Below are positions 1,068 through 53,189 of a stretch of 64,000 bases of DNA, piece by piece. Source of the DNA: Amphiscolops sp. MND2022 (taxonomy: Eukaryota); assembly GCA_964187785.1 (NCBI GenBank), contig OZ076409.1, positions 47,618,001 through 47,682,000 of the forward strand. The letters are read 5' to 3'. The notes under the pieces are model-generated. The model worked only from the letters and a program-made list of their open reading frames with translations. It searched no databases and was not told where the DNA came from. The translations under genes and the position numbers were made by a program. Every line of letters begins with the position of its first letter. Positions within the stretch are counted from its first letter, which is position 1.

Positions 1068-1217
1068 TGGCGCTGCGAGCTGAAAATTCAGCGCATTCTT
1101 CATCATCATCTTCACATCTCGTCGGGTTACCAGTATTCTGGAGTATTCTGGAGCGATGCGGTCGCAAACCCTCCGATGGATTGAAACAAGTGGTTTGACC
1201 TTTTTCAAGTAGCTATA

Positions 1218-4200
1218 ATGGCCAAATACTCCATATCCATTACGGAATTGACCAGAAATGTGGATCAGCAAAACCCCAGGGTTCGCGCTCTTCTCGGGGA
1301 TCTCGACGAGGATCCTGCAAACAAAAAAGTATTTAGTATCCTATACCTGTCATTAGGCGAACCCGCAAGAAAACAGTTCATGGATAAATATCCACACAGA
1401 GCACTGTGGGATTTAAAAGCCCAAGAATTGATAAACCTTTGCATCGAGTGTTTTCGGAAAAAGAGAAATAGAACGCTCGATAGACACCGACTCTTTTCAC
1501 GATATCAACAACAAGGAGAATCTCTGTTTCAATTTTGGCACGCCCTAAATGGGCTTGCGGCATTGTGCGACTTCGGGGAAATAACACCCACCCTGCTCCT
1601 GGACATGTTTATACTTCACATGAACAATAAAAAGGTGCAAGAAAAATTGTGCACTGAGCCTAAGGAACCTGACCAAGCATTAGAGTTCGCCCTTGCTTTT
1701 GGTGAAGGAATACAACGGCAAAAAGCCTATGGCGCACAAGCACCTGAATCAACAAAAACAGCTATAAAAAGTGAACCGGTCTAAGCCGTGGAGAAGACTA
1801 ACCCCAGGGAGTATTATAGATGTGGGGCAGCTAACTTCACCATGGATCACGTCAACTTCTGCATGGCCACCAACCACCGTTGTAAATTTTGTCAGCTGAT
1901 TGGGCATTTAGAGAAGTGTTGCAATAAAAAATTTCCCCAGCGGCAGAAAGAGATATTGCAACGACTGAAGAGCCGGGACAACAAAAAAGGAATGCGAAGA
2001 GTAAATTATATTGAAGAATCAGATGAAGAATCTGAAGAAGGCGAAGATGAAGAGCAACTAGTTCTACGTGTGGATGGCGACGGTTGCAAGCCATTTTGCA
2101 TGGAAGGAAAAATGTGCGGCAAATATTTTAAAGCAATCATCGATACTGGGTCACCGGTGTCCACTTTTACGAAGAGTGATTTGCAAAAAATTGTTGGGCC
2201 TAGAAAAGTGGTGATCAGGGACATGATTGCGGGAGAACGCTATGTTGATTACAATAAAAAAACCCTTGAATTTGCTTGGCTACCAATTCGTACGACTTGA
2301 AGTTGCAGGAGTAACAGTAAGAAAAGCACGAGTCCTAGTAGTTCCTAACTAAGGACAATCGATAGTGGGCCGTGATTGGCTAGTTGCTCTCCGCTACAAA
2401 ATTACGCAGCCGATAGAAAGAGGTGAGTGTAAAATAAATAAACAAAGTTTGAGGTGTGAAGAATCAATTAATGAGATAAGTCCTGAAAAAAGACTAAACC
2501 CCGAGGTTCAGCAATTGGTGGGGAATATACAAGTTTGTTCAAGCGGAAAGTTCGAGTGAAGAATTACAAAATTAAAATTAAAATGAAAGATGACGTGAGA
2601 ATTTCGCAGTAAGAGGGACGCCGTATTCCCATCCAACTACAAAATCAAGTGGAAAATGAAATTGAAAAGTTGTTAAAGGAGGGACATATTGTGAAAGTCG
2701 ACAAAATTCAAGACCACGTATTTATTCAGCCGACGGTAATACCTGTGAAAAAAGATGAGTCTGTGAAAATTGCCTTAGACGCGAGAGCGCTAAACCAATC
2801 AATAGCAAAAGACAAATACCAAATGCCTAATTTAGATATTTTAATTGACATGATTGCGGAGAAATTAGATGAAAAGGATGGGGAGGCGTGGTATTCGTCA
2901 GTTGACATGACGTACGCGTATGGGCAAATTCCGTTGCAAGAATTAACAAAAAGACATTGTAATTTTCAAATCGTGGGAGGAAAATCAACAGGCACGTACC
3001 GATTCACAACGGGATTCTACGGCCTTACTGTAATGCCAACAGAATTTCAGAAATTAATGGACCTCACTTTAGCAAATGTAAATAGTGTATTTGTATATGT
3101 AGACGATGTATTAATTGTAACAAAAGGAACTAAGCAAGAACACTTGAATAAAGTTAGGGAAGTATTGAAAATTCTGGACGAAGCGAATTTACAGCTGAAG
3201 GCAGAGAAGTGCATAATTGCACAAGAAACTATTGAATGGTTGGGTTATAAACTGACGAAACGGGCATATCCCCAGTTAATGCAAAAGCCCAGGGAATGAG
3301 CGATAGATTGAGACCAAATAATTAGAAGCAACTGCGCTCATTCCTTGGAGCGGTGAATAAATTCAACAATTTCATACCAAATTTAGCTAGTATTAGTTTC
3401 CCCTTTAGAACAATTTTAAAGAAAGATGCAGAGTGGATTTGGAACGACGAGCACGAAAAAGCGTTTGTCAAAATGAACGATGAAATAAAAAGAGTAGTAG
3501 AATTGTCACATTTTAAAAGAAACCAAGAAATACGAATTATTTGCGATGCTAGCAAACAAAGTCTAGGTGCTGTTTCACAACAAAGCCAGGCAAACGGAGA
3601 ATGGAAACCAATTTGTTTTGCATCTAGATTTTTATTCGATTTGGAAGCCAAATTTTTTATTAACGAGTTAGAACTTTTAGCGATAGCTGGGGCGGTAGAA
3701 CATTTTAGAAATTATGTATATGGGGTACAGTTTAAAATAGTTTCGGACCACAAAGCGCTAGCATCAGTATTAAAACCAAACAGGGGAAATAAAACATTTT
3801 CTAGTAGACTGACACGCTGGGTGGATAGACTGCTGCCATTTGATTTTCAGGTAGTACACGTCGCAGGGAGAACGCTAGGAATGGCAGATTATCTGTCAAG
3901 GCATCCCACGGAACTATACGGATCACCATTAAAGCAGAAACCCTGTGGAATGAATGGTTTAATGTAAACAGCGTAATTAGTTTAAATAATGTTTTAGATG
4001 GCAGTGAAGCGAGCAGCGAGCAAAGCAAGCCGGCGGAAAGTGCGAGCGGAGAGATTAGCATCAATCGAATAAATCAAGCAGGCTGCCAACAGCCAATCAA
4101 ATTGAAGAACGAACGCAATTCGCGGGAACCAAGTAAGCGTCATTGTGGTAAAAGCGTACAGAAACGTAAGATGAGTCAAAGTCCATCGATTAAACAATTA

Positions 4201-5779
4201 AATGGAAAGTTGTTGCCAGCGAATTATTGCGCTGACAAATTGATACAACAGGTTATCCGCCTAGTTAAAAAGTATAACAAAACAGGAGTTACCCGGCTAC
4301 CGTCCCCTTGGAGGGAAAAATTGAAAACGTTCTCACTCGACGAACGCAATTTCCTTTATACCGACAATCGCCTAGTTATTCCGCAGGCCATGAGGGCCAT
4401 GATAATGTGCTCCCTGCATTATGGCCATCCCGGTCGGGACGCCTTGCTGGCGTTGATCGAGGATATTTGGTGGCCTCGCATCCACCGAGAGGTTATTGAT
4501 CAAGCAAGATTGGGTGAGCAGTGCCTGCAGTCAGGTAAGAAATTAAAATACATGCTAAAGCAAAAACAAATAGGCAAACTGCCGGACGTAAAGGAATTGA
4601 ACGAGGCGGTAGCACTCGGTTTCGCAGGACCGTTCCAAAATGCGAAAAAAGGAAAGAATTATTTGCTAGTGTCAATAGATCATTTTTTAGGATGGCCGGA
4701 CGCAAAATTTTCACATCGCCCGACAACGAAAAAAGTGATTGAATTTTTAAAACAATGTTGCGCACAGTATGGAGTACCTAAGAAAATACGAACGGCTCCT
4801 GTCACAGTGTTTGTAAGTGAGCTTTTCACACAGTTTTGCAAACAATTTGGAATAGAGCAAATAACGGGTCCTATTAGACATCACAGGGGCAACGGGAAAT
4901 AGAGCGGTTAATCAGAACGATAAACGAACGACTCCGAACAAATAAACATGTTATTTTTACTAAGGATAAGACCGGATGGTCTGAGATCCTGTACTCGCTG
5001 AGAATTAGTAAGAAAAAGGACGGAAAGTCGCCGTTCGAAAAAAAATGGGAAAAGAGCCAAACACGGTGAAATCGAATTTAGTAGAAAGGTATCTGGACTT
5101 TTCAGCCCAAGATAATAGAGTGGAGTTTCAACAAGCGGACTTCCAAGACGAATGTGACTCAATGATGTTGGGGCGTGAAAGATCAAAAGGATCTAAATTG
5201 GAACCCGTGTTTGCCAGAAAGACCGGAAAAGTACAAGAGAGAGCACACACCATCGCAGTTCTGCCAGAAGCCGCAAAACACCCAAAGGTCTTCTCCAAAA
5301 GAGACATAATGCAGGCGTCCAAAGAGCAAAAGGACAAACTCAAGAAGGCAGGAAAACGGGCGATAATCGAGGACTCATCGAGCTCAAGCGAGTTGGAAAC
5401 ATCGGCAAAAAGAAAGGGGAAGAAGACAAAGTGTGGAAAGTCACTTCCCTCAGAAGTGAACACAAAGTGGGGAAAGGCACCAACCCCATAAATGGCTTTC
5501 GACCTAGAGAGCGAGACGCAACCCTCCATTATCGATATTACCTCAACTATCGAAACAAACGACAAGGCGCCTAAAGATGCAACCCCGCCAAAACAAGAGG
5601 AAGCGTCAAAAGAAGAAAATGGCCCAGATGATGCAATCCCGATAAAAGCCACGACATCGTGGCAGGTGGAGAAAAAGGGGCCCATAAGATACTCGGAAAG
5701 AAAACATGTGCCGCGAAAACGTTACGGAATCGATCTGGTCACTGAAGAGAAGGAAGGGCCCGAAAAAGAAGTTAACTAG
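1218..5779 (+). pseudogene. Disrupted gag-pol polyprotein (double Zn knuckle, protease IIDTGS, RT YVDD, RNase H CDAS/ELELLA/SDHKAL, integrase HYGHPG, long charged tail)
   Basis: Consecutive ORF fragments 1218-1784, 1788-2300, 2649-3299, 3353-3967, 4102-4902 and 5045-5779, separated by stops and frameshifts. Confidence 0.93.
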
Positions 5780-9308: not shown

Positions 9309-10092
9309 CCCGTACTGACAACCCAGGGAAATCCATAGGTGGCCATCGGTGGACCACCAATGGCCATCGGTGGGGGGAAATTAGCTTACGTAGAGGCTTT
9401 CCCACCGGTGAACCAAAAGTGAAAATTTCGTTCAACATTTCTAGCAACTGAATGTTGGTAAACGAAATACCTTGAGACGATATTCGCAACCTTAATGCAT
9501 CAAAGCTTAACAATATTGGAAAATTATAAGGACCGGTTCTGAAGTATCTGTAATCCCTGTTTGTAGTTTCAAATCGTGTCTGAAAAACCTTTTCTACTGG
9601 TTATCCCGTGAGTTTAGATCTTACTCTAGTTATTTTTTTGTGTGATTTTAGATCTTCTGCCGGTGTTTTTTCCAGTCATTTTAGATCTTATTCCGATGTT
9701 TTTTCGGTGACTTTAGATCTTATTCCGGTGTTTTTCATAGGTTTTAGATTTTCGTTCTGTAGGACTTTACTAATGATCTTGCTCGTTACGACTTTCCAGA
9801 AATTGTCGAAGATGATCAGTGCATGTATGCCTGTGCTTGTAAAATTTTTTCGCAGTTTCAACTAGGGTAACCAACTTTTGGGGACCTTTCATCGACGGCA
9901 CACCGTAGCCCACCGATGGTCCATCGGTGGCCCACCGATCTCCACCTATAGCCCATCGGTGGCCACCATTACCCACCGGTGGGCCACCGGTGGCCACCGC
10001 AAAAACTGTTACGGCCACCGAAGTGACCACCGATGGAACTGTGGTGGAAGATCGGTGGCCACCGATGGATTTCCCTGGGTTATCAACTCGGG
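9309..10092. mobile_element. MITE with CCCG...CGGG termini, TIR core ACCCAGGGAAATCCAT and CCATCGGTGGCC subterminal repeats; 2-bp TSD TG (CACTA/EnSpm-like)
   Basis: 9321-9336 is the reverse complement of 10065-10080; looser symmetry extends to 9309/10092; TG on both flanks. Confidence 0.8.
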
Positions 10093-11488
10093 TGAGACAA
10101 ATGTATCCGAGAAGCCTGTCAAGATGAATTTCAAAGATCTAGGTTCAATACCGTCACTCCGATAGGTGTTCAAGTGAAAAAAATCCTGAATCGAATTGCT
10201 GGGATGAAATCCAGCCAATATTTCTGCAGCCCTTATTCCACCAAAGCATTATTATAAAAAAAACAAAAGTGCAGTGGTATTTTGCAGTGTTTAATATAAA
10301 AGTGATCTCGTGTGTTTTGTCTGAAACCGTACTTTTGAGACCAGTTTATTTCTGATAGGCCGTTTTGAAACCAGAATTTCCGTCAAATAGTCCATGACTA
10401 TATCTTAAAAGTTTCTAGAAGCAAGAAATTCATGATAAGATGAATGTTATTAGTCTGGATATTTTTTTTCAGCAACAAGCATTCCTATAATCGTTCAGAA
10501 CGTGCACGAAATCTCAAAAATTGAAATAATTGCCATTGATTTCACTTTGATAAACTCTATCTTTGAGGTTATAAAATTAGAGAAGGGCCGAACGCAAGCA
10601 AAGGACCCCGATTGATATAATTCTTTCAAGTTTTTTTTGATGATTACACTGATTGTCAATTTTCCCAGAAAAACTATTTTCAGTTCGAGAATGAGTTGAG
10701 CGACAAAACTCAGCTTATTTTGACTGGATTTTAAAATTGTTGTTTTTCAGTATTTTCGATAGGATTTGATTCAATAGGATTTTCCGCGTTGATCACACAA
10801 AACAAGAAAGAAGATACGATCAGATCCAAATTTGGATTCCTGTGATACTAAGTTACTGGCAAGGTCATTTCAAACAAGACCCAAAGAGCAATCAGAGTCA
10901 TTGAAAAGCAGATCTTCTCATCGGATCCACCTTACCTAACTCACTAAATGATTCAAGAAACTCTAATGAAGCTTTACAAAATTACGTGCTTTGAGGGTTC
11001 CAAAAACAACTCAACTTATTTTATTCCTACAACCATGTCATTTTGACAGATTTGAGTCTTCAGTTATTCGAAAAAAAAACAAATAGGGTTTTTTCTCGGT
11101 TATCTTCGTAAAGAAGCTGCGAAGTTCGAATTTAGAGTCACCTTGTCAATTTTCTACGCCAAACAAAACCCATAGGAAAGTTTTCAAAAAAATCATTTCG
11201 TCCACGAACCAAATGATAGTAGTACCCTTTTCTTTATTGGAATACCGAAAGCTATTTCGAGGAGCTACTTAAATAATGGAATCTGCCCTTTACACGTTTA
11301 TACTGCTCAAATTCCCAACAATTAGTACAAAGATGTGATATTCATAGCAGCAGAAGAGCTGAGCGAAGGTTAGTAGTTTCTTTTTGCACGGTCCAAAGTT
11401 GTTGGGTAAACTTTTCAAGGAATTGTATGATATTTTATAAAAGGAAAAGTTGCACTATAGCAAAGCTTTTCATCACGCTAAAGAACTT

Positions 11489-12216: not shown

Positions 12217-12561
12217 ATGTCTGGGAAAGTTATCACCGTGAAGGCGGTTGAAAGTTTCGATGGGAATGGAAGAATGGAAGAAACCAATGAGAGTCCTTCG
12301 ACGTTACAAAAAAAATGTGGAATTTGGAAACTGTGTCGGCAAAATGTGTGGGTCGTGGTCACATGGATTGTGTGTTTGACCGTTTTGGGCTTGTTTACAA
12401 TGAGTGTGTTCTATGAGTTCATTGAAAACAATCCAGTGACAATTATAACGTTCATAAACAAGCCAGAGTATCCGGATCCAGTTGTGGTCAAAGTCTGCCC
12501 CTCAGTATTTTTGGATCAGCAGAAAATCCTGAGTTACAACGGCACCGAAATCAACTACAAG
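12217..12561 (+). CDS. DEG/ENaC (ASIC-like) sodium channel, exon 1 of 4; join(12217-12561,13257-13579,14499-14739,15250-15813), about 490 aa
   Basis: ATG start, hydrophobic TM1 (VWVVVTWIVCLTVLGLF), then YPDPVVVKVC at the FPAVTIC position. Exon end inferred at AAG|GAAGGA (non-canonical donor). Confidence 0.85.
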
Positions 12562-12627
12562 GAAGGACTGCCATACTTACCATTTTGTTTTTGTTTTTTA
12601 TCTATTCATACAAATATTTGACTACAT

Positions 12628-12878
12628 AAATTTCGAAATGTTTTCGACGCAATTTCCGCACAAACATTGCTCGATATTTTAGGCAATGTAAAGCTCGAGT
12701 GAAGTTTTCAGCAGAAAAATTTATGTAGAAAGTTTCTTGGCTAAAGCATTTTTGATGAAAACTGATGTTATAACTTTCTATATAAATTTTTCTGCTGAAA
12801 ACTTCACTCGAGCTTTACATTGCCTAAAATATCGAGCAATGTTTGTGCGGAAATTGCGTCGAAAACATTTCGAAATTT
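12628..12878. repeat. 107-bp near-perfect inverted repeat (37-nt spacer) in intron 1
   Basis: 12628-12734 versus 12772-12878; one mismatch seen. Confidence 0.95.
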
Positions 12879-13016
12879 CATTTCCGAATAAAATACTTGG
12901 GCATCTTCGAAATCCCAAACAAAGCTTAAATAGACTGAAAAACTTAAAAGGCGAGTTTTGTTGAAATTTTGAACATGGCCGAGTCGAACGAATTTTTGTG
13001 ATCGAAAATTTCGATT

Positions 13017-13183
13017 CCCATCGATGGGTCATCGATGACCCATCGATGGGATCATCATTAGAAAAAGCTCATCGATGCCCATCGATGGACCATTGATGGC
13101 CATCGATGGGCCCCATGGGACTGCGATGGCCATCGATGAACTGCGATGGCCATCGATGAACTGCGATGGGATCTCAGTACGGG
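13017..13183. mobile_element. Right end of a MITE (CCATCGATGG repeats, TCAGTACGGG terminus) in intron 1
   Basis: The terminus is the reverse complement of CCCGTACTGA at 9309; the subterminal repeats resemble those of the 9309-10092 element. Confidence 0.65.
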
Positions 13184-13256
13184 AATAACCACATGGGGTA
13201 TTAATCAAAACTTTGGGTGATCAAAATAGTTTCGCGGAATGGCAGTCCTCACCTAG

Positions 13257-13579
13257 GCCTACCAGTTCTTGTATGAAGCTGTTTCTGGCAACAGCAACTT
13301 TAACGATACTTCCTCGGTTGTGATTTCTCCCATGAAAGACATTTTCCTAGTGAGCTCCAGGATTATGGAAGAATTCTCATTGGACAAAGAGGCCTTCATA
13401 GTGAGCTGTTTTCTCGTTGGACATTACGATGATTGCTTTCCTGCCTTAGAGTGGCATCTGGATCCTGCACAGCCTTGCTACAGTGCAATAATTGACGTAC
13501 GAGGTTATGGAAAGTCCAATACTCTCACTATCAGTCTGTTCTTCGATCCAACAAGCACTTTAGGCAGGTACACTTCAAG
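13257..13579 (+). CDS. DEG/ENaC channel exon 2
   Basis: CCTAG| acceptor with an in-frame stop just upstream; FIVSCFLVGHYDDC...PCYS matches the palm/finger pattern; AG|GTTAGT donor, phase 2. Confidence 0.88.
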
Positions 13580-14498
13580 GTTAGTCAGTGCCTTCTTTTG
13601 AAGCAAAATACTCAAACTCCAAAGTTGCTTTTTTTGGTTTCAAGTCCCGAATATCAGACGTGATCATTTTCAAGTTGATCAGTTTGCCATCAAATGTTTA
13701 CTTGACGAGAATATGAGGCTTACACCCGCTAACCTAATCAACTTGTTTGCTAATATAACTGGTAAACATTATAATGGACTTTTCATAATTCGTCTGGTGG
13801 AATATTCGACTTCTCCGCCAAATTTCAAACAATTACGTGCACTTTGTTTTAATGAACACTGCTAGAAATATGCATAATGTAGTGTAGGACAATTTTTACG
13901 TACTATTTATAAATGTTGCGCAATGATCATTCAAATATTGGAATTATTTTAAAATGTAATCGATTGAGGCATTGTTTTAACACATGGTTCTAAGAAAGGC
14001 TGAGATGGAGTTTGATTGAGAAATTGCCCATTTGAATTCTTTTAAAAACATCAGTTTTCTGATTTTTCATAATCAATCGGGGTTCATCGATTCCGATTAA
14101 GAAGATTGCTTGGAAATTTGAAAATCTATATCAATGCCAGAGACATTTGATAAAAGAACTAACTTTTGAAGAATATCTTTCCTCTGATCACTCGGTGGAA
14201 TAAGAACAAGTTTGGTGAGTCAATAGTTGGAAACTGTGAAAACATAAAAACTCAATCTTTAATTTTATTTTTAAAAAAGCAATATAAATCGTTTTTTTTT
14301 GTGGTTTCTAAACACCTTATTGCATACATTACAATGAAGCTAAAAAGGGCCGTGTCTTTAACTTTACCGATTGTGCTCAACCATATTTCTCAACTATTTG
14401 AGTTGCTATGTTGAAAACTACTTGAGAGCATGATGAATTTTCTTTACAATTAACGACCCAGAAAATTGAAAACAAACTTTATTAATTTCAAATTTTAG

Positions 14499-14739
14499 GT
14501 TGGGTGCTTACGTCACATTCTCTCACCCCGACGACTACATGGCGCCCTCTGACGGCATTTTTGTGGGGCCACAGGAAGCAGCAGTGGTATCAGCGTCCGT
14601 TGTTCATAAAAAGCAGACCAAGTCTTTTGAGAAAGCTGCCTGCGTGAAGAAACAGGGTCTGGATTGGTACAATTTCACCGGAATCCCTTTCCTGTTAGAC
14701 TACCAACCAGAGCATTGTGTATCTTTGTGTTATGCTCAG
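14499..14739 (+). CDS. DEG/ENaC channel exon 3
   Basis: TTTTAG| acceptor, phase-compatible with exon 2; GAYVTFSHPDDY...GIFVGP and start of the Cys-rich thumb (CVSLCYAQ). End inferred at CAG|GAATGT. Confidence 0.88.
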
Positions 14740-15249
14740 GAATGTCAAATTTCTTGTAGAAATAGTAACGCATTCCATATTCTTCTTACCAGTTGGAAAA
14801 GTGGAATTTCTTTAACTGAAAACAAAAACATCAACTGAACTAGAGTATTAAATTTTCATTTTCATTTTTATGAACAATCAAACGCGTCCTCTCAGCACCA
14901 AGTTTTTTTGCTATTTTTGTTCTATTGATATTCATGATGGCCAGCACAAGCAAAACTGTGCCAAACTTGCACGAAGAGTTCGAAATATTTTATAGGGGAA
15001 ATTTTCATTCGCCATTTTCTATTTTTTCCAAAACACGTTTTTTACGGCACGTTTCACAAAAAATGCAGTTGTATCTTCACATGTTACGATCCTATTCATT
15101 GAAATCGAATTGCTTTCCCTGTGCTCATGGTCGAACTGAATGAGATCATAATCAAACTTCCAACCAATATGGATAACAAACCTCACGTAACTTTGTAGAA
15201 AACCAGTGGAATGCAATATTTGAAATTTGATAACTTTATTTGTCATCAG

Positions 15250-15813
15250 TCCTTCTACAAACGGTGCAACTGTTCATCTCATTTGGGTTTGAACATTACG
15301 AACACGGAGTGCATCGAGGATGAGAATCTGCGAAGATGTGTTCTTATAGCTATTCGTGACTTCAAAACAGAGGTTCAACGGAGCAAAAAATGTTTGGGTA
15401 GCTGTCTCACAAAATGCGAGCATTCTTCCTATGAACTCAGCGTTCGCAAAGAACCTCAACTGGTTCCCGGTGAGAAAATGAGGCTTTTGCTGACTTTGCT
15501 AGTTACGCAAAATTACACAAATTCAACTCTAGTCCATAATTTATTCCGAAGAATGGCTCACCATCCTAAACCGCTCGAAGAGGCTAAACGTATCTCGGAA
15601 AACATTGGACAAGTAACATTCTTTCTTCGGAACAATCAGCAGGAAACAAAATTCGAGGTCATTCCTTTCTTGACATTTCCCACGTTCGTGAGCAATGTCG
15701 GAGGTCTGGTTGGAATGTGGCTTGGAATCAGTGCCATCTCGCTCATGCAGTTCCTGGAGAAAAAGCTGACGTCAGTTTTTTCTACCAACCCAACAGACGC
15801 ACTCAGAAGATGA
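15250..15813 (+). CDS. DEG/ENaC channel exon 4 (thumb cysteines, TM2)
   Basis: CATCAG| acceptor; CNC...CLGSCLTKCEHSSY; TM2 signature FVSNVGGLVGMWLGISAISLMQFLE with G-x-S filter; TGA stop. Confidence 0.92.
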   Translation, partial: SFYKRCNCSSHLGLNITNTECIEDENLRRCVLIAIRDFKTEVQRSKKCLGSCLTKCEHSSYELSVRKEPQLVPGEKMRLLLTLLVTQNYTNSTLVHNLFRRMAHHPKPLEEAKRISENIGQVTFFLRNNQQETKFEVIPFLTFPTFVSNVGGLVGMWLGISAISLMQFLEKKLTSVFSTNPTDALRR

Positions 15814-34199: not shown

Positions 34200-37100
34200 T
34201 ATTTGGCCTCTGTATCGTTTTCATCCAAGTCGTAGAGTAAGTGAGTGAGAGATAGCTATTGTATGTTGAAGAGATTTGAAGTGAGATGTAGGATAGTTGT
34301 CCTAGTAAGTGTCTGGGGCGTTTTCAATTTTCTGATCTCCGGCCATCGTCTGGGCCAAGGTCCTCCAAAATTTGTATTGGTGGGCCTTCATCCAGGCCAC
34401 TGTTCGGATTTGGCCTATTTTTTGATTTGATCACTAGGGCGTTATAATCACTAGGGCAGAGTCCGGCTTCCAGTTTGAGGCTGGGTTTTGTCGGGGATTG
34501 TATTTTGATTTTCGGGGGGATTTAGGGAGTTGGCTAGTATTAGTATCCACGTTGATGCTTTCAGCTGATTTGTCGTGTTCCATCGTAATATCTTGGGTGA
34601 TGTCCTCAGTGATGTCTCAGCGTTCTTATCATAGTATTGCTTTTACCGTATGTACGAGTGTAGGAGGTGCTTGCTCACTGCCTCATGGACGCATCTTGAT
34701 GCCCAGGACACGGGTTGTGTCAGCCATTACTTCAGATATGAACTGGAACCCTTTGTCAGTCATGAGGTTTGTGGGGAGGTACGCGTGGCGCGTCATGTTG
34801 TCGACAAGTACTCGGGCAATGGTCTTTGCGTCAATTCTGGTGACTCAGTATGTAAATAAGTATCGTGAGAATACATCCATGGCTGTAACTATAGCCGTTT
34901 ATCCGTTTGATGGGTCGTCGAACAGGACGATGTCCATCTGTAAGGAATCTTCTGGTCCCATTGCGAGAGCGGAAGTATTATTCATTGGCGGGGTGAGTAA
35001 TCTGTCGTCTGTTCGTTTAGTTTGCTTGCATTCCATGCATTGGTTGATGTGTTTGGCAATTCTGGATGCTAAACCTTCAGAGTAGAATTTTTCGCGGCAT
35101 TGTTGTAATACTATGGTGTTCCGAGGGTCCTTGTTGTTCTTTCCGTGGTGGGCCTTAATGAAAGCCTTGACTAAGTGTCTCGGGAAGAGTACTTGTGAAT
35201 ATTTAACTTTCCCAGTCTCGTCGAAGAACTGCCGGTATAGCAGTCCATCCTTGAGGATGATACGGAATTCTTGGGCGATGTACTGGAGTGATCTCCGGTC
35301 TGTGGCCAACAGTTGTTCGTTATAGGGTTTTTTAGAAGGCAGTAGTTTTTGTAGTTTTTAGGGTTCTTGTAGTTTCGCAGGACATGGTCTTGGCCTTGTT
35401 GGTGTCTCATGTCACGGGGTAAAGTATGATTATGGTGTTTTTCTTCGACACAACTTCGTCTGATTACTGCTGTTTCAAATATGGTTGTATCGTTCTCTGT
35501 ATTGGTTTCGTTGGTTTTTGGGTCTCCTCCTGGCGTTGGGGTGGTGTCGTTTTCGAGGGTTTTTACCTTGTTCTCTGTTTTCTCTCCAAATTTGTTCTTC
35601 TGTCTCTGTTTCGTCGGCGGGGAGGAAGTAGAACTGTTCCATTTCAGCGACGTTGGATGACTGGATATGTACCTCAATGGGTGAGGTTTGGATGTCATCT
35701 CGTATTATGAGTTGGACCTTATCTTTGGGGTCAAGGTCGAGTCTGGATAGAAAATCTGCTGCGGTATTCATACTACCTGGGACTTGTGCAATTGTTAAGT
35801 TGAACTGCAGGACAAAGTCACATGCATTCCACAGGGCTGGAGGAATGATCTTAGTCTGACAAAAACGGGTCACAGAATTGTTGTCCGTCAGGAGGATGAC
35901 CGGTTTGGTCAATCCCCAGAGAAAGTGGTTGTACTCCATGAATGCGAAGTATATGGCCGGGAATTCTTTGGCGTAGCTGGACATTTTGATCTGTGACGGT
36001 GAGAAGGTTTTGGAACGGAAGGCTACTGGGGCATTTGTCTTTTGCTGACGTTATTCTCTCATTGGTGTATTCCCCAATCTTGAGGGCGTAGCCGGCATTT
36101 TTGAAAATTGCGTCAGTCATAAGTACGTATTGCTTTTTGGATAGGGGTTGTTTTAACTATAGGCCACATGCGTTGTCCAGAGCCTTGTTGTTGCATTCGA
36201 ACTTTGTTATGATCTCGGTGGTGATTTTGATCGGTTGGTCAGCATTGACCAGGTCATGGAAAGGTGCCTATTTCTCAGAGAGTCTGGGTATGTAAATGCG
36301 GTAGTAATAAACAATCCAATGTGCCTTTTTGGAAACGACAATTTTTGGAGGAAGTTTTTGTTTTTGTGTGGTTGGGGGCAATGCCTTCTGGTGAGTCGGT
36401 TCGTCCAAGGAATTCGACTTCCTTGTCACCGAACTGAAAATTGGCCATCGTCAGCCGCAGACCTGCTACTCTGACGCACTGAAAGACCTCGCGCAGGTTG
36501 ATCTTCAACTCCGTGGCGTTGTGAGCAGCTATCCCGATGTCGTCGACGTACTTAGCGCATTTGTCAGCTTTAATGACTCATTCGAGATACTCCTTCATAA
36601 GGCTCGGAGAATGAGGAGAGAGATCTGCTGAACCCTTGTGCAAGTCGCAGGTATGCGAATGTCCGACTGGACAAATTGGACGCCAGGAGTTTCACTGATT
36701 TCTGGTCTGCCATTCCCAAAACATGGCAAGCTTGAGAACAGTCGAGCTTACAAATCAGTTTCTTTCCTTCCAAGTGCCAACGCTATGGGTCAGGTCATCT
36801 TTCAGGTTAACGGGGCATGGCAAACTCTGTGTGTAGGCTGTTTTGGGGTGAGTTTGATTTTGAACTCTATGTCCGGGCGATGCCTGGCGAAGATTTTGTT
36901 GTATTCCACAAGTATATCTTCAGTATCAGCTTGGTCTTTTTCGTTTAGTTGGGAGTCTTCCCATTTGAAGTTTGCAAAAGTGGATGCCCTGTCCTTTGGG
37001 TTTTTGTAAAGATTGAGTTTCTGGATAGATTCGAGTTCTTGGATTTCGCGCAGGATTCTACTTTGAATTGGGGTGTGGGACGACGGATCGCATGGGTTAT

Positions 37101-38050
37101 CTGGTGTGGGAAACCAGAAATTATGGTTGGGTTGGTGTATCTCAGCTGACTTGAGAAGCTCAATGACGTATTCCAGGGCTTATTCAGAGTCGTCGTCAAC
37201 CAGCGCCTTGAGTGTTGCTGAGTTTAGCGGTTTAGCGGTTGTAGTTGCTTTGATTCTTGTGGGTAAAGCATGGTAAACTCTGCGACGGTTGCGTTCCTTT
37301 TTAATGTGAACCGGTTTGGTAAGGTATTGGTGACGCGTACTTCGAATTTAGAAATTGAAGCGGTTGATAGGGAGCCTGCGATCACTATATGGTTTTTTCC
37401 TGAGTATGGTTCGGTCGGGTGAGTAATTCCCGTGGTGTTTCTGAGGGTGCGTTGATTGATACCTGCCTCAACTGTGACGCACTGGTCTGGCATTATGGTT
37501 AATTGATTTCAGATAGTGACTTTGTGGTTTCGTTGTCATCTGCTGAGATGGCGTAGGTCAGGTGTGAGGAGTGAAGTAGGGCCTGACTGGCGTCTAGGAT
37601 GGCGCTATTGTTTTTGAGAAACGTGAGACAGAGGATGGGACCCGTTGATTTTGTTGCTAGAATGAAGGTTTATTGGAAGGTCCAGTTGCCAATGTCAAAC
37701 TGGAGCTGGACCGTTTTGGTGGGCGCTGCTAAGTCGCCGTATGCGACGTGTAATTTGAAGGTTGGTGGCTCAATCTGTTTGACGATATTGTCTGGGCTGA
37801 CTGATTTGATTTTCTCGAATTCGCTCTCTGGTAGGGAATTAACGACTGCCCCCGAATCTATGAGTGCGTCTATAGATAAAATGTTTAAGTCCATAGGGGC
37901 GAACAGGTTTTTCTTCTTTTTCAGGGTAATGGCTAAAAAAGTGGGAGGCATTGCTCACTGGTGTTTGGGCTTGTGATGGCTCATTGAGTTGTTCGTTTGT
38001 GTGAAGCCAATCGGCGTCTTTTTCATCGACTGGTAATTTCGGAGGTTCAG
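34200..38050 (-). pseudogene. Heavily degenerate Ty3/Gypsy pol (PR-RT-RH-IN)
   Basis: IDALIDSGAVVN (~37850), KLDCSQA, YVDD (~36540), TDA..NAGYAL, KEFPAIYFAF/LLTDN/ADFLSR, integrase HH-CC and QMDIV motifs. Confidence 0.9.
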
Positions 38051-47262: not shown

Positions 47263-47472
47263 TGTTGTAATCTCTTTGCTTAACAAAAGTTAACAACATA
47301 AAACTGTATTCGAACATCAATCTTTTCGTACTGAATAAAGATCAGCTTTTTAGGTATAGACAATAGTAGCAGGTACTAAGGACATCTAGACAATTAAGTA
47401 TAATGGTATTGAACAATAGTAATGTCTGTCTATGATTTGTCCTCTAACTCTAGTTCTTTAGCTGCTGCTTCA
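47263..47472 (-). repeat. 3' LTR (210 bp)
   Basis: TG...CA, adjacent to the PPT, matches 53190-53399. Confidence 0.97.
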
Positions 47473-50066
47473 CTCCCCCCTCCGCGATTGGATAATAGTT
47501 GACCAATGGGGGAGGTTTGTTCTTTATGGCGGTTTTCCGTCCAAAGCAATTTTGGTGTATTCGCGGTGGCCCGCGATTCGTCAGTTGTCCGGTTGAATTG
47601 TTCTGCCTGGACTGGCTCTTCCATTGTGTCGTTTAGTATTCGACGCTGCTGGTCTTTTCCCGAGTGTCTTCCTCGGTTTCTGGTGTCTTCTGGGCGTTTA
47701 GTCTGTTTACGGTGTTTCCTGTAATCAGATGTTATGGGATTATTAAATCTAATAATGGGGTTTGTTTTTGTTAATCTTTTCGATCTCCGTAAGTTGTGTT
47801 CTTTTGTTTCTTGTTCTATTTCGGTGCTAGAACTTAGGTTACTGATTAATTCTAGGTCGGAGGTTTCTGTTTCTAGGTTGTTTTTTTCCTTATTCTCTTT
47901 CCCTCCGTAAACGGTATTGTTGTTATTAAGAGTTACCTTACCGTTTAAGTCTTTGATAAAAAGTTCTGTGTCATTTTGTTTGGCATCTTCAATGATACGG
48001 TCAATGTCCGTATCCGTCATGTTTTCCGTAATGATGGTTAGAGGGCCGAGGCTGTCCGTTGAGCCGGTAAGTGAACCAGGGCTTTGTCTGTTGCGGACCA
48101 GTTTTGGGCGTCCTCTTCCAAATGATCCGCTTGTTTTTGTGGTTGGCGTAGTTGGGTTGCTTCGGGATTGTGTGCCCTCTGTTATTTGAGTAGTATCCAT
48201 TTGTGGTGTTGTTGGATTGCTCTTCTCCGAGTCGCTGTCTGATTTGGCTTCTCGTGTCAGTCTGGGGGATTTTATGAACCGGCCGTCCGGTCCTCTCAGT
48301 CCCATGCCTCTGTTGTTCTGTTCCTGTTCAAATTCAAAGATTGGTTTACTAATGTGTTTTCTATGTAGGATTCTATTTTCCGCGGTTGTGACCGTGTGTT
48401 TAGTTCCCGATATGGCGGTTTGTAGTTTATTTGAGTAAGCGCTCTCAAATTTCGGTTTATTTATTCTTTTCTCGAGAAATTGAAATGGGTAGGTACTCAC
48501 TCCTTTTTGTCCTTTCTTTTGTTTCATCGGTAGCTGGTCAGAGGCACCGCCAGCTCCGTTGAAGGAATATACCTGTAGGGTATCTGGTTTTGCTGAAAAA
48601 CAATTGTTTGTTATAGTTTTCAGTTTATCTAAGTTTAAAAGGTTACTGATTTCCGTATTCGGTTCTCGTCCGTAGTGTAATTCAAAAGCAGATTTCCCCA
48701 ATCTCGTGTGGGGTGTTTTTCTCATCACGTTTAAGGCTATGTCTAATGCTTTGTTAAATTTTTCGCCCGCTTTTATGTTCGTCAGCATTGTCTCTTTCAA
48801 AGTCCTTACGCCGCGTTCGACCAGCCCTGTGGGGGTGTGTATATATGGTGTCCCATATATGAGTCTAATGTGGTGATTTTTACAAAACTCTCTAAAAGTG
48901 TGGCCCGTAAATGCCGTGGCTTTATCCGTTCTAATAGTTTTCGGAATGCCGTTCAGGTTTATATATTGTTCCATAAATTTAACCGTGGTTTCGCCGTCGG
49001 TCGATTTACAAAGGCTTGCCGCCGGCCATTTGCTAAACCGGTCCATTGAGAGTAAAATAAAAAACCTTTGGTTTCTTTCGGTGAACGGTCCGATAAAATC
49101 CAGTTGTATTTCTTCGTTCGGATTGTTTAAAGCCGGTAATTGGTTTTTTTCCGTATTATGTAAGTTAGGTTTGATATTCTTACCGGACATTTTGCACGGG
49201 ATGCAGCCGTCGCATTTCTTTTGTATGGCCTCGGTGATTTTTGGCCACCAGAAGTGTCGTGCCGCCATTGACATCTTGTTGATGGCGGGATGGCCTTTAT
49301 GGAGGAGGCTGATCACCGTTGTTCTGAGATTTTTCGGGACAATTATGCGGTCTTCATAGAACACGAGTCCGTACCTGGTAGATAATTTTCTTCGGCATTG
49401 CTGGTATTCTTCTGGTATGTTGTCTTGTTGCTGTCTCTCAAGGCACACGAGTGTTTTTAGGAGAGTCGGGTCATTAGTTGTCTCTGTCATCAGCAACTGG
49501 AGATCTGTGGAGAAATTCTTCTCCGATTCACGTACCGCGTTTCCGAGGTCCCAGTTGTTCGGCTCTTCCGCGGTGGTTCTGGGGGCATGTCCCATTTTTA
49601 TATATTGGACGCTTTTAACGCCTGCGTATTTTGCCCAATTAACTGCGGGGACTTCGAGTATGGACGGGTCTTGATCGGATTCCGAGTCAATTTCCCCTTC
49701 TTCCATCGGTACTGGTTGTTGCTGCGAGGGCCCGGGTCTGTCTTCTGTGTTGGCCGTAGCTTGCGGTCTGTCAATGTCCCAGAACGGGTCAACCGTCCAT
49801 TGTTCCTGTCTTCTGGTTTCCGGTTGAAATCCCCCGTCTGGTTCTTGTTGATTTCGGCTTTCTAGGTTTCTGATGGCTTGTTGAAGTTGTTCTTCAATGA
49901 CTCGTCTCTCGTTTCTCAGGAATTTGGGTTCGTGGTACTTTTTCCAGCGGCCACCTGACTGTCTATAAACCCCGGGCTTTACAATATCTCTCCATCTAGC
50001 AATGAGATATCTAGTTTCTGTCGAGTTATCAGCTTGTTCAAGATTATCGATGGTTCTGGCGTCCAT
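47430..50066 (-). CDS. Integrase with long N- and C-terminal extensions
   Basis: 878 aa; HKGHP...CIPC zinc site, QLDFIGP, IRTDKA, GLVER (DDE); stop lies inside the 3' LTR. Confidence 0.95.
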   Translation of the reverse strand: MDARTIDNLEQADNSTETRYLIARWRDIVKPGVYRQSGGRWKKYHEPKFLRNERRVIEEQLQQAIRNLESRNQQEPDGGFQPETRRQEQWTVDPFWDIDRPQATANTEDRPGPSQQQPVPMEEGEIDSESDQDPSILEVPAVNWAKYAGVKSVQYIKMGHAPRTTAEEPNNWDLGNAVRESEKNFSTDLQLLMTETTNDPTLLKTLVCLERQQQDNIPEEYQQCRRKLSTRYGLVFYEDRIIVPKNLRTTVISLLHKGHPAINKMSMAARHFWWPKITEAIQKKCDGCIPCKMSGKNIKPNLHNTEKNQLPALNNPNEEIQLDFIGPFTERNQRFFILLSMDRFSKWPAASLCKSTDGETTVKFMEQYINLNGIPKTIRTDKATAFTGHTFREFCKNHHIRLIYGTPYIHTPTGLVERGVRTLKETMLTNIKAGEKFNKALDIALNVMRKTPHTRLGKSAFELHYGREPNTEISNLLNLDKLKTITNNCFSAKPDTLQVYSFNGAGGASDQLPMKQKKGQKGVSTYPFQFLEKRINKPKFESAYSNKLQTAISGTKHTVTTAENRILHRKHISKPIFEFEQEQNNRGMGLRGPDGRFIKSPRLTREAKSDSDSEKSNPTTPQMDTTQITEGTQSRSNPTTPTTKTSGSFGRGRPKLVRNRQSPGSLTGSTDSLGPLTIITENMTDTDIDRIIEDAKQNDTELFIKDLNGKVTLNNNNTVYGGKENKEKNNLETETSDLELISNLSSSTEIEQETKEHNLRRSKRLTKTNPIIRFNNPITSDYRKHRKQTKRPEDTRNRGRHSGKDQQRRILNDTMEEPVQAEQFNRTTDESRATANTPKLLWTENRHKEQTSPIGQLLSNRGGGSEAAAKELELEDKS

Positions 50067-50142
50067 GATAATTTTATCTTTCGGTGCGGTTTGAATTGAG
50101 CTGCTGATTTGTGAACTTTTAAGGCAATTAATGGCGATTTGT

Positions 50143-52266
50143 TCACGCGTTTTGGAATGTTTTGGTGTGTTGTTTGCTTTGCGCGTAGTCTTTTTGCGTT
50201 CCGTGTTTTGATTGGTTAAAATGGTTGCTAAGGCAACCGTATTTGGTTACGAATTTGTAGTGCGGGATGACGTTATTGATTACGTATTCTTCGTCGTATA
50301 CGTCATCGGTTTGTGGAGGTGCCGACGGGCTACGACTGAGATAATCCGTGAGTGCTAAATGTTTGCCGGCTATATGGCTGACGTTGATTGTGAAGTGCGC
50401 TAAGCGGTCGAGCCACCTCGTTAGCCGCGCGCTGTACGTTTTATTGGATCGGTTGCGTTTAATTAATGGCTCTAATGCTTGGTGGTCTGTCAATAGCTTT
50501 ATCGGTTTACCGTATATATAAAGACGGAAGTGTTCTAATCCCCATACGACTGCCAATAATTCCAATTCATTGATTGCGTATTTCTTTTCTGTATCGGAAA
50601 GGAAGCGACTGGCAAATCCGATCGGTTTTAAATCTCCGTTTGGCTGTTCTTGCCACAGCGTTGCGCCCAATCCTTTTGTGCTGGCGTCCGTTGTTAATAT
50701 ATTCGGACGGTTTGAATTGTAGTGAGCCAGACACGGTATTTCCGTGATTTTTTGTTTTAAGTTTTCAAACGCTGTGGTATGTTCATCGGTCCAATTCCAA
50801 GTGTTATCTTTTTTTAGTAGCTGTCTTAAGATGTCGGTTTGTGCTGACAGATTTTCGATGTATTTTGATAAATATTGAATTGCGCCTAGGAACGATTTTA
50901 GTTCCTTCTCATTTTCGGGTCTTTTCAGTTCTTTTATTGCGGTTAGTTTGTCCTGTAACGGTCTAATACCGTTTTGGTCAATTTTGTGGCCGATCCATTC
51001 TATTTCGGTTTTGAAAAGTTCAGATTTGTTCTCGCTTAGTCTGTAACCCGCGTTTTCTAGTCTCGTTAACACATCGATTAGTTCCTCCATGTGTTTCTGT
51101 TTTGAACCTTTGGTTACTACTATAATGTCATCTAGCCATGCTGGATGTTTGTTTTCCAACGTTTGATCGATTTTCTCTTGGAAAATGGTCGGTATGTCCG
51201 CTAACCCGTAAAATCCTTTCAAAAAACGATAGTAACCGGTAAAATTACCTCCGGTCACCGCGAATATGCAAAGGTCCATTGCTCGTTTCGATAATCGTAG
51301 TTGACCGTACGCATAATCTAGATCGAACTTCGAGATCCAGATTTCGTCTTCCGGTCCGTCGGCTATTTTTCTGGAGATTCTTGAAATTAGTTCCTCCATG
51401 TTTGGCATTTGTGCTTTCCTTTTTACCGTTATCTCGTTTAGTTTCCGGGAGTCCAGGGCTATTTTTACCGATTTATCTTTTTTGATCGTTATTACCGCCG
51501 GGCTTACAAAGCATGTTTCGTCAATGTCGTTTGCTTTTTCAATGTGCCCTTGGTTTTTTAATTTTTCTATTTCTTTTTCTACCGCCGGTTGTAAATGAAT
51601 CGGGATTGGTCGGCCCTTTTGTTGAATTATTTTCGCTCCTTCTTTTAATTGGATATCTACTTCTATGTTATTTACCGTGTGGTTTTCGTTAAATAGTTTG
51701 TGAAACTTACGTTTTAGTGTTGTTATGTCTCGGTCTTCTGTATTTCCCATCTGGGTTATGTGGTTGATTTCTGTTTTGGGAGTTTCTACCTCTAGTGTAA
51801 TTCCCAGTTTTCCCATCCAGTCTAGTCCGAGTAACGGGTGGGTGTTTTTAGTTGTTACCAGTATTTCCAGTTGGTGTTTTGTACCATTCAATTCGACATT
51901 TGCGGTGATTTTTCCTTCAAATTTTATTTTGTTGTCGTTAACGTCCCGATAATCTACAGTTATCGGTTTGAGTGTTGTCACCTTGTTGAATTTGGATTTT
52001 GGAATAAGAGTTACTGGTGAACCTGTGTCAATTATGAATTTGATTGGTCGGTTGTTAACCAATACCGTCTTCATGTAGAACGGCGGTCCGTTCTTGTTAT
52101 TTGTTGCCAGTGAATGGATTTTTGGTTGTATCATATGTATTCTGTCTGGTGTCCAGTCATCTTCGTCCGCACTGTAAGTTTCTTCTTCTTCTTCTGCTAT
52201 ATGGTTGATTTTTTTTCGATGAGCGGCAGCATTTGGCGAAGTGTCCGGGTTTACCGCATTTGGCAC
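50143..52266 (-). CDS. pol: Pol: protease, reverse transcriptase, RNase H
   Basis: 707-aa frame; IIDTGS, FDLDYAYGQ, WLDDI, TDAS, ELELLA, TDHQAL, DYLSR. Confidence 0.96.
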   Translation of the reverse strand: MPNAVNPDTSPNAAAHRKKINHIAEEEEETYSADEDDWTPDRIHMIQPKIHSLATNNKNGPPFYMKTVLVNNRPIKFIIDTGSPVTLIPKSKFNKVTTLKPITVDYRDVNDNKIKFEGKITANVELNGTKHQLEILVTTKNTHPLLGLDWMGKLGITLEVETPKTEINHITQMGNTEDRDITTLKRKFHKLFNENHTVNNIEVDIQLKEGAKIIQQKGRPIPIHLQPAVEKEIEKLKNQGHIEKANDIDETCFVSPAVITIKKDKSVKIALDSRKLNEITVKRKAQMPNMEELISRISRKIADGPEDEIWISKFDLDYAYGQLRLSKRAMDLCIFAVTGGNFTGYYRFLKGFYGLADIPTIFQEKIDQTLENKHPAWLDDIIVVTKGSKQKHMEELIDVLTRLENAGYRLSENKSELFKTEIEWIGHKIDQNGIRPLQDKLTAIKELKRPENEKELKSFLGAIQYLSKYIENLSAQTDILRQLLKKDNTWNWTDEHTTAFENLKQKITEIPCLAHYNSNRPNILTTDASTKGLGATLWQEQPNGDLKPIGFASRFLSDTEKKYAINELELLAVVWGLEHFRLYIYGKPIKLLTDHQALEPLIKRNRSNKTYSARLTRWLDRLAHFTINVSHIAGKHLALTDYLSRSPSAPPQTDDVYDEEYVINNVIPHYKFVTKYGCLSNHFNQSKHGTQKDYAQSKQHTKTFQNA

Positions 52267-53134
52267 ATTTCTTTCCTTTCGCCGGGCATTCGTGTTGTTT
52301 GGACCAATTGGGAGCTCCGCATCTGTTGCAGTCCATTCTTCTAAATTTTGTATTTTTTTCCGTATGTTCTTTTGTGGATTTGAATTTTCTCTTTTCTACA
52401 TGTCTGATTTTCTTTTCTTCGTCAGTTTCTGGAGAGTCGTTCAGTTTTTCATACATGTACTCATGTATTTCGTCTGTTATTGTCTCAACTGACATGTCGC
52501 CTTTGCGTATTTTCTTTTTCAATTCGTAATCTCCGGTTGACTTCCCTATGAGTGATAAGAATTTGGATGCTAGTAATTCTGCAGCCGTGATATTTTCGAA
52601 TTCACAGTTCTTTTCGATTTCCAGGAGTCTTTTCCATACATCTGCTGCCGTTTCTCCGTTTTCTCTCTTCATATCGAAGAAGTCTGATCGGCTGTGTTGT
52701 ACGTTCCGTTCCGGTGTATAATGTAACCGGAATAGTGTGTATAGTTTATATAGTGGGAGGGAGCTCGGTTCTCTTTCTCTTACCGTCTTGGTCATTTCGG
52801 TAAGGGCATTTTGTCCAATTGCCCAGAGGAAGATATCTTTTATCTCGTTTTCCAATTGTTCCCGATATTGTGGTAAGATCTCTTTGGAATTTACCATCGT
52901 TGAAATGTCGATTTCTTTCGTCATTTTCACGTATTGGACGAATTTTCGCCACCACAGATTTGCACTGGTGCTATCGTATTTTTCCAGACTTGGTATCGAT
53001 AGCTTTTGGGTACAAGTCCGCTCGCCCGTTCTCATTGAGGTTTCATTGGGCGGTTGCCGGATACTTGAAGATTGGTCCATTGACCGGTGGGGTCGTTCAC
53101 CATTCGTGGGTGATGTGTTGTGTGATTCGTCCAT
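52157..53134 (-). CDS. gag: Gag with tandem Zn knuckles
   Basis: 325 aa; CNRCGAPNWSKQHECPAKGKKCAKCGKPGHFAKCC. Confidence 0.93.
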   Translation of the reverse strand: MDESHNTSPTNGERPHRSMDQSSSIRQPPNETSMRTGERTCTQKLSIPSLEKYDSTSANLWWRKFVQYVKMTKEIDISTMVNSKEILPQYREQLENEIKDIFLWAIGQNALTEMTKTVREREPSSLPLYKLYTLFRLHYTPERNVQHSRSDFFDMKRENGETAADVWKRLLEIEKNCEFENITAAELLASKFLSLIGKSTGDYELKKKIRKGDMSVETITDEIHEYMYEKLNDSPETDEEKKIRHVEKRKFKSTKEHTEKNTKFRRMDCNRCGAPNWSKQHECPAKGKKCAKCGKPGHFAKCCRSSKKNQPYSRRRRRNLQCGRR

Positions 53135-53189
53135 TTCCGTATCGTGTGTAGTAGTTCTTGGCTAAGCGTAAGTTAGCCTGACTGCGCCA

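Follow-up and report, generated by a model that had tools for sequence, protein, structure and literature searches.

Introns with complementary ends and AG/G-N donors in acoel DEG/ENaC channel genes: probable relics of hAT-type insertions

Two introns with GA-AG borders interrupt a DEG/ENaC channel gene of the acoel Amphiscolops sp. MND2022, and their reverse-complementary ends are probably the leftover terminal inverted repeats (TIRs) of old non-autonomous hAT-type transposons, elements that would have landed in the coding sequence of channel genes then still free of introns. The gene lies in a stretch of 64,000 nucleotides (assembly GCA_964187785.1, contig OZ076409.1, positions 47,618,001 to 47,682,000 of the forward strand), hereafter called the window. 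The mitochondrial COX1 of the assembly agrees with an acoel source, its best named matches being Symsagittifera roscoffensis (79%) and Baltalimania ylvae (77%), against 69% at most for named species outside the acoels. Across the gene family, end pairing marks recently gained introns and goes with non-GT donors, being neither limited to GA donors nor universal. Introns with AG/G-N donors (the slash marks the splice junction), probably derived from transposons, are considered a real feature of this genome, and they would work in the manner of the TIR-type introners.

The birth of new spliceosomal introns is poorly documented in animals, and the GA and GG donors of Eurytemora were left unexplained in the paper describing them (PMC5714493). 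Here, young and old stages coexist in a single gene family whose intronless members serve as controls, and either the first letters of the element or its duplication can account for the odd donors. Old, diverged introns of this kind would escape similarity-based introner surveys. Furthermore, since 12 of 35 family introns carry donors that standard gene finders reject, the DEG/ENaC repertoires of acoels are probably mis-annotated.

The channel gene and its splice junctions

The gene at 12217-15813 of the forward strand is a four-exon DEG/ENaC channel of the ASC family (Pfam ASC PF00858 on exon 4, E=1.7e-16), whose joined exons give one open frame of 494 codons (Table 1). A profile of 25 intronless family proteins, used for spliced alignment, returned its GA-AG, GT-AG and GA-AG junctions, and an alignment in which the splice sites were left free yielded the same three intron lengths. 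The GA donors surpass the best GT or GC option by 37 bits in intron 1 and by 13 bits in intron 3.

Exon 2 has 76 matches in the 1.07-Gb genome, many within frames of 470-560 codons that represent intronless paralogues; as seen from these matches the family is greatly expanded, with many intronless copies clustered on C1, C2, C6, C8 and C12. Homologues of the expanded family were found in ENA and Logan records only. Intronless paralogues align without any indel over all three window junctions, the window introns thereby showing, as introners do, insertion at positions where homologues have none, and intron positions are scattered over the family. The closest paralogue (L021) carries the same three introns. 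Its dN/dS relative to the window gene is 0.23 overall and 0.07-0.22 exon by exon in all four exons, which indicates purifying selection on the frame that both GA introns interrupt. Considered together with protein homology, this selection suggests that introns 1 and 3 are removed by splicing.

At 12558-12567, a 4-nt tandem repeat that L021 lacks generates two AG/GA donors separated by 4 nt. The second of them, at 12566 on the downstream side, has the same context as the donor of L021, yet it is out of frame in the window copy. Elsewhere, retrotransposon-like frames (LTR gag/pol, recognized by eye) at about 1185-5700, 34900-38000, 47433-53161 and 54906-55860 take up much of the window.

Table 1. 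Features of the DEG/ENaC gene and its introns (positions in the window)
Feature	Positions	Strand	Remarks
Exon 1	12217..12561	+	Frame and spliced alignment; last letters AAG
Possible left duplication copy, intron 1	12555..12562	+	Putative, decayed; holds AG/G; shares 5/8 letters with 13250-13257, the required AG/G making up three
Intron 1	12562..13256	+	GA-AG, phase 0, 695 nt; spliced alignment, donor bit scores
5' TIR arm, intron 1	12564..12574	+	Exact complement of the 3' arm; 14 bp in paralogue; covers out-of-frame AG/GA donor 12566
Internal hairpin, intron 1	12628..12878	.	107-nt arms, 99% complementary; separate from terminal stem
High-copy repeat piece, later insertion in intron 1	12874 to about 13149-13170	+	About 40 scored matches, 86-95%
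3' TIR arm, intron 1	13239..13249	+	Exact complement of 12564..12574
Possible right duplication copy, intron 1	13250..13257	+	Putative; holds acceptor AG/G
Exon 2	13257..13579	+	Frame, paralogue matches, spliced alignment
Intron 2	13580..14498	+	Canonical GT-AG, phase 2; ends unpaired
Exon 3	14499..14739	+	Frame and spliced alignment; last letters CAG
Putative old element, intron 3	14737..15238	+	Starts at the exon's last CAG; placed by arithmetic, weak sequence support
Intron 3	14740..15249	+	GA-AG, phase 0, 510 nt; spliced alignment, donor bit scores
5' arm, intron 3	14743..14778	+	11-nt core 14743-14753 and two more pairing blocks
3' arm, intron 3	15206..15232	+	Core 15222-15232 and 15206-15221
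Exon 4, up to stop codon	15250..15813	+	Pfam ASC PF00858, frame

Complementary ends of introns 1 and 3

All the strings quoted in an earlier note on this DNA are present at the coordinates it gave, and the pairings it reported were found again. The arms of intron 1 are exact reverse complements over 11 bp and stop 7 nt short of the acceptor, while the cores of the intron 3 arms pair with a single G-U. When each intron was compared with 200 dinucleotide shuffles, end pairing reached z=-4.6 (p=0.005) for intron 1 and was marginal for intron 3 (z=-1.9, p=0.04), which the note had rightly taken as the weaker evidence; canonical intron 2, described there as unpaired, gave z=+0.2. Among swapped end pairs, 5 of 6000 contained a perfect run of at least 11.

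In L021, the intron 1 stem is perfect over 14 bp and begins within the AG of the exon, and the intron 3 stem is perfect over 11 bp, with more imperfect pairing further inward. A second pairing proposed for intron 3, involving 15238-15246, exists in the window as described but is not kept in L021. Upon folding of the whole introns, the closing stem of intron 1 appears in both the MFE and the centroid structures, whereas that of intron 3 is absent (z=+1.3). That the 3' end of intron 1, once reverse-complemented, resembles a canonical donor had also been remarked; none of the tests run gave this resemblance a function.

Intron 1 also houses an internal hairpin, likely a recent local inverted duplication, since only one arm exists in the paralogue (77%) and no further copy turned up in the DNA search. 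The high-copy repeat next to it is rich in palindromic 10-12-mers, and a look-alike stretch lies upstream at about 9770-10165, as judged from translations and not from alignment.

End pairing across the DEG/ENaC family and in control genes

Forty regions were fetched around part of the 76 exon-2 matches, and 37 were aligned. Together with the window they provided 56 introns with a length of 100 nt or more, of which 43 passed flank and free-alignment filters; 8 common to a close paralogue were dropped, leaving 35 independent introns. Junction calls required G at +1 and a final AG, and were kept if the free alignment gained at most 4 bits. As controls, 33 Prp8 introns were taken together with the 92 of 115 dynein introns that passed the filters (one duplicate gene piece being excluded), giving 125.

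Donors in the 35 family introns are GT in 18, GG in 9, GC in 5 and GA in 3, while the 33 Prp8 introns show 31 GT and 2 GC. An exonic AG precedes all 12 GA/GG donors, which likewise share the G at +1 and the AG acceptor typical of U2-type introns with such donors, and free-end alignments concur. These donors were favored over GT/GC by at least 9 bits in 11 of the 12 calls and by 1.3 bits in the remaining one. Dyneins contributed one well-supported non-canonical donor, CAG/GG, in an intron that is paired (p=0.005) and has a hAT-like end; three further dynein GA/GG calls, only 5-6 bits above a GT situated 1-3 bases away, were discarded as alignment slips.

Pairing at p≤0.01 was displayed by 15 of 35 family introns versus 2 of 125 controls (Fisher p=7e-10), and at p≤0.05 by 19 of 35 versus 8 of 125 (8 of 92 for dyneins alone), 16 family introns being unpaired at this latter threshold. 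Distributed by donor, the paired family introns at p≤0.05 comprise 9/12 with GA/GG, 4/5 with GC and 6/18 with GT. The expectation that end-to-end pairing would exceed shuffles, and more often so in introns with non-GT donors, is thus upheld (13/17 versus 6/18 for GT, p=0.018), but pairing is not the trait of GA-AG introns that it had been taken for, considering the GT and GC introns that share it.

Paired introns are also poor in T upstream of the acceptor (0.29 at -20..-5, versus 0.53 in Prp8, p=5e-7, and 0.45 in unpaired family introns, p=0.009). The Prp8 acceptor tracts themselves (L082-L093) are enriched in T+G (0.82 at -20..-5), not in pyrimidines. Family introns have lengths of about 0.2-4.5 kb; most of them are old, and internally they differ from one another. 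Stem starts and ends vary by more than 10 nt relative to the splice sites, many stems cover the donor, and some reach into the exon further than a TIR would.

Some minor features of the regions examined are also worth recording. The last exon of the L056 gene model, which contains one stop, shows a dN/dS of 0.58 at low dS, so that this gene may be decaying or partly converted. A dynein AAA match at G000:C11:15094626 falls in an open frame of 4409 codons that seems to encode a dynein heavy chain without introns, and on C6 a dynein stretch recurs almost identically about 50 kb away (L182-L184), as either a partial tandem duplication or an assembly repeat.

Transposon signatures in the family introns

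A 20-mer from an arm common to three introns has 378 matches with at most 1 mismatch, compared with 0 for its reversed control. Among 30 fetched copies, 13 have a partner arm at most 1.5 kb away, and the identity of their flanks peaks at 8 bp (0.61, against 0.28-0.39 at other lengths), with 5 of the 13 matching at 7/8 or 8/8. These sequences are a MITE family with 8-bp target duplications, to which no transposase was linked. The family is mostly found outside exons and forms at least three introns, all in DEG/ENaC genes, namely L040:105, L040:348 and L035:243, copies with 7/8 flanks (L040:348 and L035:243 being judged by eye). The donor of L040:105 is the GG of the element, which follows a duplication ending in AG; in the other two, both splice sites are supplied by the duplication, as read partly by eye.

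As in introners, TIRs are found at the intron ends of introns 1 and 3 and of 19 of the 35 family introns. In-register repeats across the junctions, beyond AG/G itself, amount to 0.56 in the 19 paired introns versus 0.41 in swapped ones (p=0.0004), are weak in unpaired family introns (p=0.09), and are lacking in Prp8 (0.41 versus 0.42 swapped). Direct repeats over the junctions, of which the earlier note had cited short ones, are supported for paired introns as a class and weak in the window introns (5/8 and 4/8).

The genome contains hAT transposase sequences, with 150 scored PF05699 matches in frames of up to 697 aa, none of them inside these introns. When 20 hAT transposase regions were fetched, 15 showed TIRs starting with TAG, TAA or CAG between exact 8-bp repeats, 8 being the only length searched. 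Two hAT-like ends were detected in 7 of 35 family introns (swapped mean 0.84, maximum 3 in 300) and in 3 of 125 control introns (swapped mean 1.79). In 5 of these 7 family introns, the spacing exactly fits clean removal with an 8-bp duplication.

From insertion to intron

An insertion of hAT type into coding sequence would duplicate 8 bp, and might survive when splicing restores the frame. Three routes can be envisaged: (i) in route A, the first letters of the element, CAG/G, would provide both the donor and the three bases that end the exon, giving GG or GA donors, with the acceptor AG three bases beyond the duplication; (ii) in route B, the duplicated 8 bp would hold AG/G, so that the left copy becomes donor and the right copy acceptor, whatever the base at +2; and (iii) in route C, the duplication would end in AG and the element start with GG. 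All of them would require a spliceosome, predicted to be the ordinary one, that accepts AG/G-N donors and a weak pyrimidine tract, and we infer such tolerance of any base at +2. Insertions could then have become introns because the duplication or the CAG/G of the element yields AG/G and any +2 base is tolerated. The three routes would likewise explain why an exonic AG is obligatory and the +2 base free, why the stem varies in position, and why the T tract is poor.

As for the window, intron 1 may have followed route B and intron 3 route A. Both introns would fit a hAT-type 8-bp duplication only if it has decayed, and intron 1 fits the duplication route only with a 1-nt indel. In intron 3, the 8-nt flanks 14729-14736 and 15239-15246 match at 4/8 positions and are followed by CAG, their spacing corresponding to zero net length change. 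The hAT-end test picked neither intron. A living element family for the intron 1 arm is rejected: its 14-mer has only 4 exact matches in 1.07 Gb, its near matches number 132 versus 193 for the control, none of the 30 near matches checked has a partner plus duplication, and the third exact match, on C4, lacks the partner arm. Whole-intron DNA searches, in which very common words were skipped and the best candidates scored, led from intron 1 only to its inner high-copy repeat, and from intron 3 only to the paralogue. Since the window introns are thus single, without copies beyond one paralogue, they are regarded as introner-like relics and not filed among the introners.

The TIR-bearing intron-generating elements invoked by the earlier note are supported for the intron class by the multicopy TIR family, the 8-bp duplications, the hAT-like ends and the junction repeats. 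Introns 1 and 3, whose ends belong to no living family, would be old cases, their element origin being inferred from that of the class.

Possible contribution of the stems to splicing

The proposal that a closing stem licenses the GA donors gained no clear support: stems also occur in 6/18 GT and 4/5 GC introns, 3 of 12 GA/GG introns are unpaired at p≤0.05, and no fixed distance to the splice sites is kept. A broader version, compatible with the transposon origin, appears possible though rather doubtful: selection would keep the inherited stems because they bring the splice sites close to each other and make up for the weakness of the donor and the lack of a pyrimidine tract. In the five clear hAT-spaced introns, arm positions 4-10 pair in 28/35 cases while the free positions of the duplication match in 9/29 (Fisher p=1e-4), and these duplications are more decayed than those of non-genic MITE copies (0.61) of similar arm identity. 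This comparison is, however, biased, considering that (i) the introns were picked for good arms, (ii) the right copy lies within the acceptor region, and (iii) the control is a different family. The low T content before the acceptor and the more frequent pairing of non-GT donors point in the same direction, but element origin alone suffices for both.

Comparison of paralogues, where compensatory changes had been anticipated, provided one such change, G-C/T-A between L054 and L056, seen by eye. Between the window gene and its paralogue, the arms of intron 1 are conserved while the interior differs, and the zebrafish AC/GT introns offer a precedent (PMC4691745). On the contrary, stem position is not fixed, and the many stems that cover the donor would hinder U1; whole intron 3 does not form its closing stem; and in the terminal 20 nt the ends of paired introns (14-19/20) are no better conserved between window and paralogue than those of unpaired intron 2 (16-17/20). 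Stem retention by selection is at best suggested by the comparison of arms and duplications. One hint comes from window intron 1, whose predicted stem would mask the out-of-frame donor at 12566 but not the in-frame donor.

Were the stems functional, a transposon scar would have been co-opted as a splicing signal. A more ambitious and likewise tentative reading, to which we would give somewhat long odds, is that the acoel spliceosome ignores +2 after AG/G, that hAT insertions of many families were fixed as introns, and that their TIRs are kept as RNA clamps defining both splice sites. This would amount to structure-guided non-canonical splicing in an animal, and could also explain the GA/GG donors of Eurytemora.

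Alternative explanations for the complementary ends

The introns might instead have arisen by some other route, such as tandem duplication of AG/G or repair insertions, with complementary ends evolving later and no transposon ever present in the window introns. The window arms that belong to no family and the stems that run into exon sequence are in keeping with such an origin, which is nonetheless unlikely, because their sister introns are either clear copies of the MITE, flanked by 8-bp repeats, or carry hAT ends whose spacing is exact, and long-standing Prp8 and dynein introns gained no stems.

Much less probable is that the GA introns are unspliced or mis-called, in a pseudogene broken by insertions or in a gene using the donor at 12566. 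This second AG/GA donor, created by the 4-nt repeat, has the paralogue-like context but shifts the frame, and a stop does occur in the L056 model; against this stand the open 494-codon frame, the alignment to intronless paralogues without indels, the low dN/dS of every exon, and the recurrence of the same pattern in many genes. Finally, chance pairing is scarcely credible and is refuted for both the intron class and intron 1, given the 15/35 versus 2/125 contrast, the p=0.005 of intron 1 and the longer or perfect form of both stems in the paralogue, even if intron 3 alone is marginal and without a closing stem in its MFE structure, and even if 8/92 dynein introns reach p≤0.05.

Comparison with known systems

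Non-canonical or transposon-derived introns in acoels were not found reported in the mainly open-access literature searched. Neither four acoel genus names nor two clade names occur in 12 of the 14 supplement files, the species list among them, of a survey of 8,716 genomes (PMC12130899), and the consulted portion of the S. roscoffensis genome paper gives intron counts only.

Introners derived from TIR DNA transposons (PMC9860276, PMC12130899, PMC11282704) share with the acoel introns the TIRs at intron ends, splice sites taken from the target duplication or the element, a mostly unchanged mRNA length and some GC and GA donors. Introners of hAT type with 8-bp duplications are known, for instance in Panicum virgatum fam14 and Styela clava fam1 (PMC12130899; PMC9860276). 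The acoel introns differ in being about 0.2-4.5 kb long, mostly old and dissimilar inside, in the contribution of several families, in their common GG donors (9/35), and in that the MITE family lies mostly outside exons. Being so unlike each other inside, most of them would be missed by a similarity search for introns.

Eurytemora affinis (PMC5714493) presents GA/GG donors always after an exonic AG, AG acceptors, lineage-specific positions and an unchanged U1 5' end, all as in the acoel. Such donors make up 10-12% of its introns, with GA far above GG, and neither paired ends nor a transposon origin is mentioned; in the acoel, on the contrary, GG exceeds GA (9 to 3), and these donors are concentrated in one expanded family (12/35) and rare in Prp8 and dyneins (1/125 well supported).

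Fritillaria borealis (PMC11282704; 10.1101/2025.08.15.670264) likewise has animal introns from MITE-like elements with TIRs and duplications, in its case with an adapted U2 spliceosome, a duplicated U2AF and mostly non-GT/AG introns (AG-AC, AG-AT). The acoel, unlike it, keeps G at +1 and the final AG, and its conserved genes are almost all canonical.

Nonconventional introns of euglenids and diplonemids (PMC12501133; PMC12621601) show pairing that joins the intron ends, a weak pyrimidine tract and a suspected MITE origin, as here, but they lack G..AG ends, and Euglena needs a CAG-CTG pair at fixed distances. A Euglena-like fixed geometry is rejected for the acoel introns, which keep G and AG and whose stem position varies by more than 10 nt. 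The (AC)n-(GT)n introns of zebrafish (PMC4691745) are also animal spliceosomal introns with pairing ends, proposed to replace U2AF2; their pairing ends are simple repeats, their splice sites are canonical and their function has been tested, in contrast to the unique element-derived arms, GN donors and putative function of the acoel stems.

Spliceosome components

U1, U6 and Prp8 are all present in the genome. Reading 15 of the 23 U1 copies revealed no GA- or GG-specific form: all of them keep the bases opposite +1 and +2, while some copies (L065-L079), most of them on C12, vary at the bases facing -2, -1 or +3. Regarding U6, an altered version is likewise discarded for the 5 of 19 matches read, all of which keep ACAGAGA. 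Out of 815 alignment columns that are otherwise invariant, 18 are changed in Prp8, a figure that allows no conclusion beside the 0-7 of five references and the 31 of a sixth. In these U1 and U6 copies and in Prp8, no clear change that would account for tolerance at +2 was thus apparent. The U6 genes occur as inverted pairs, at G000:C3:315168-319044 and C2:95.4-100.6 Mb.
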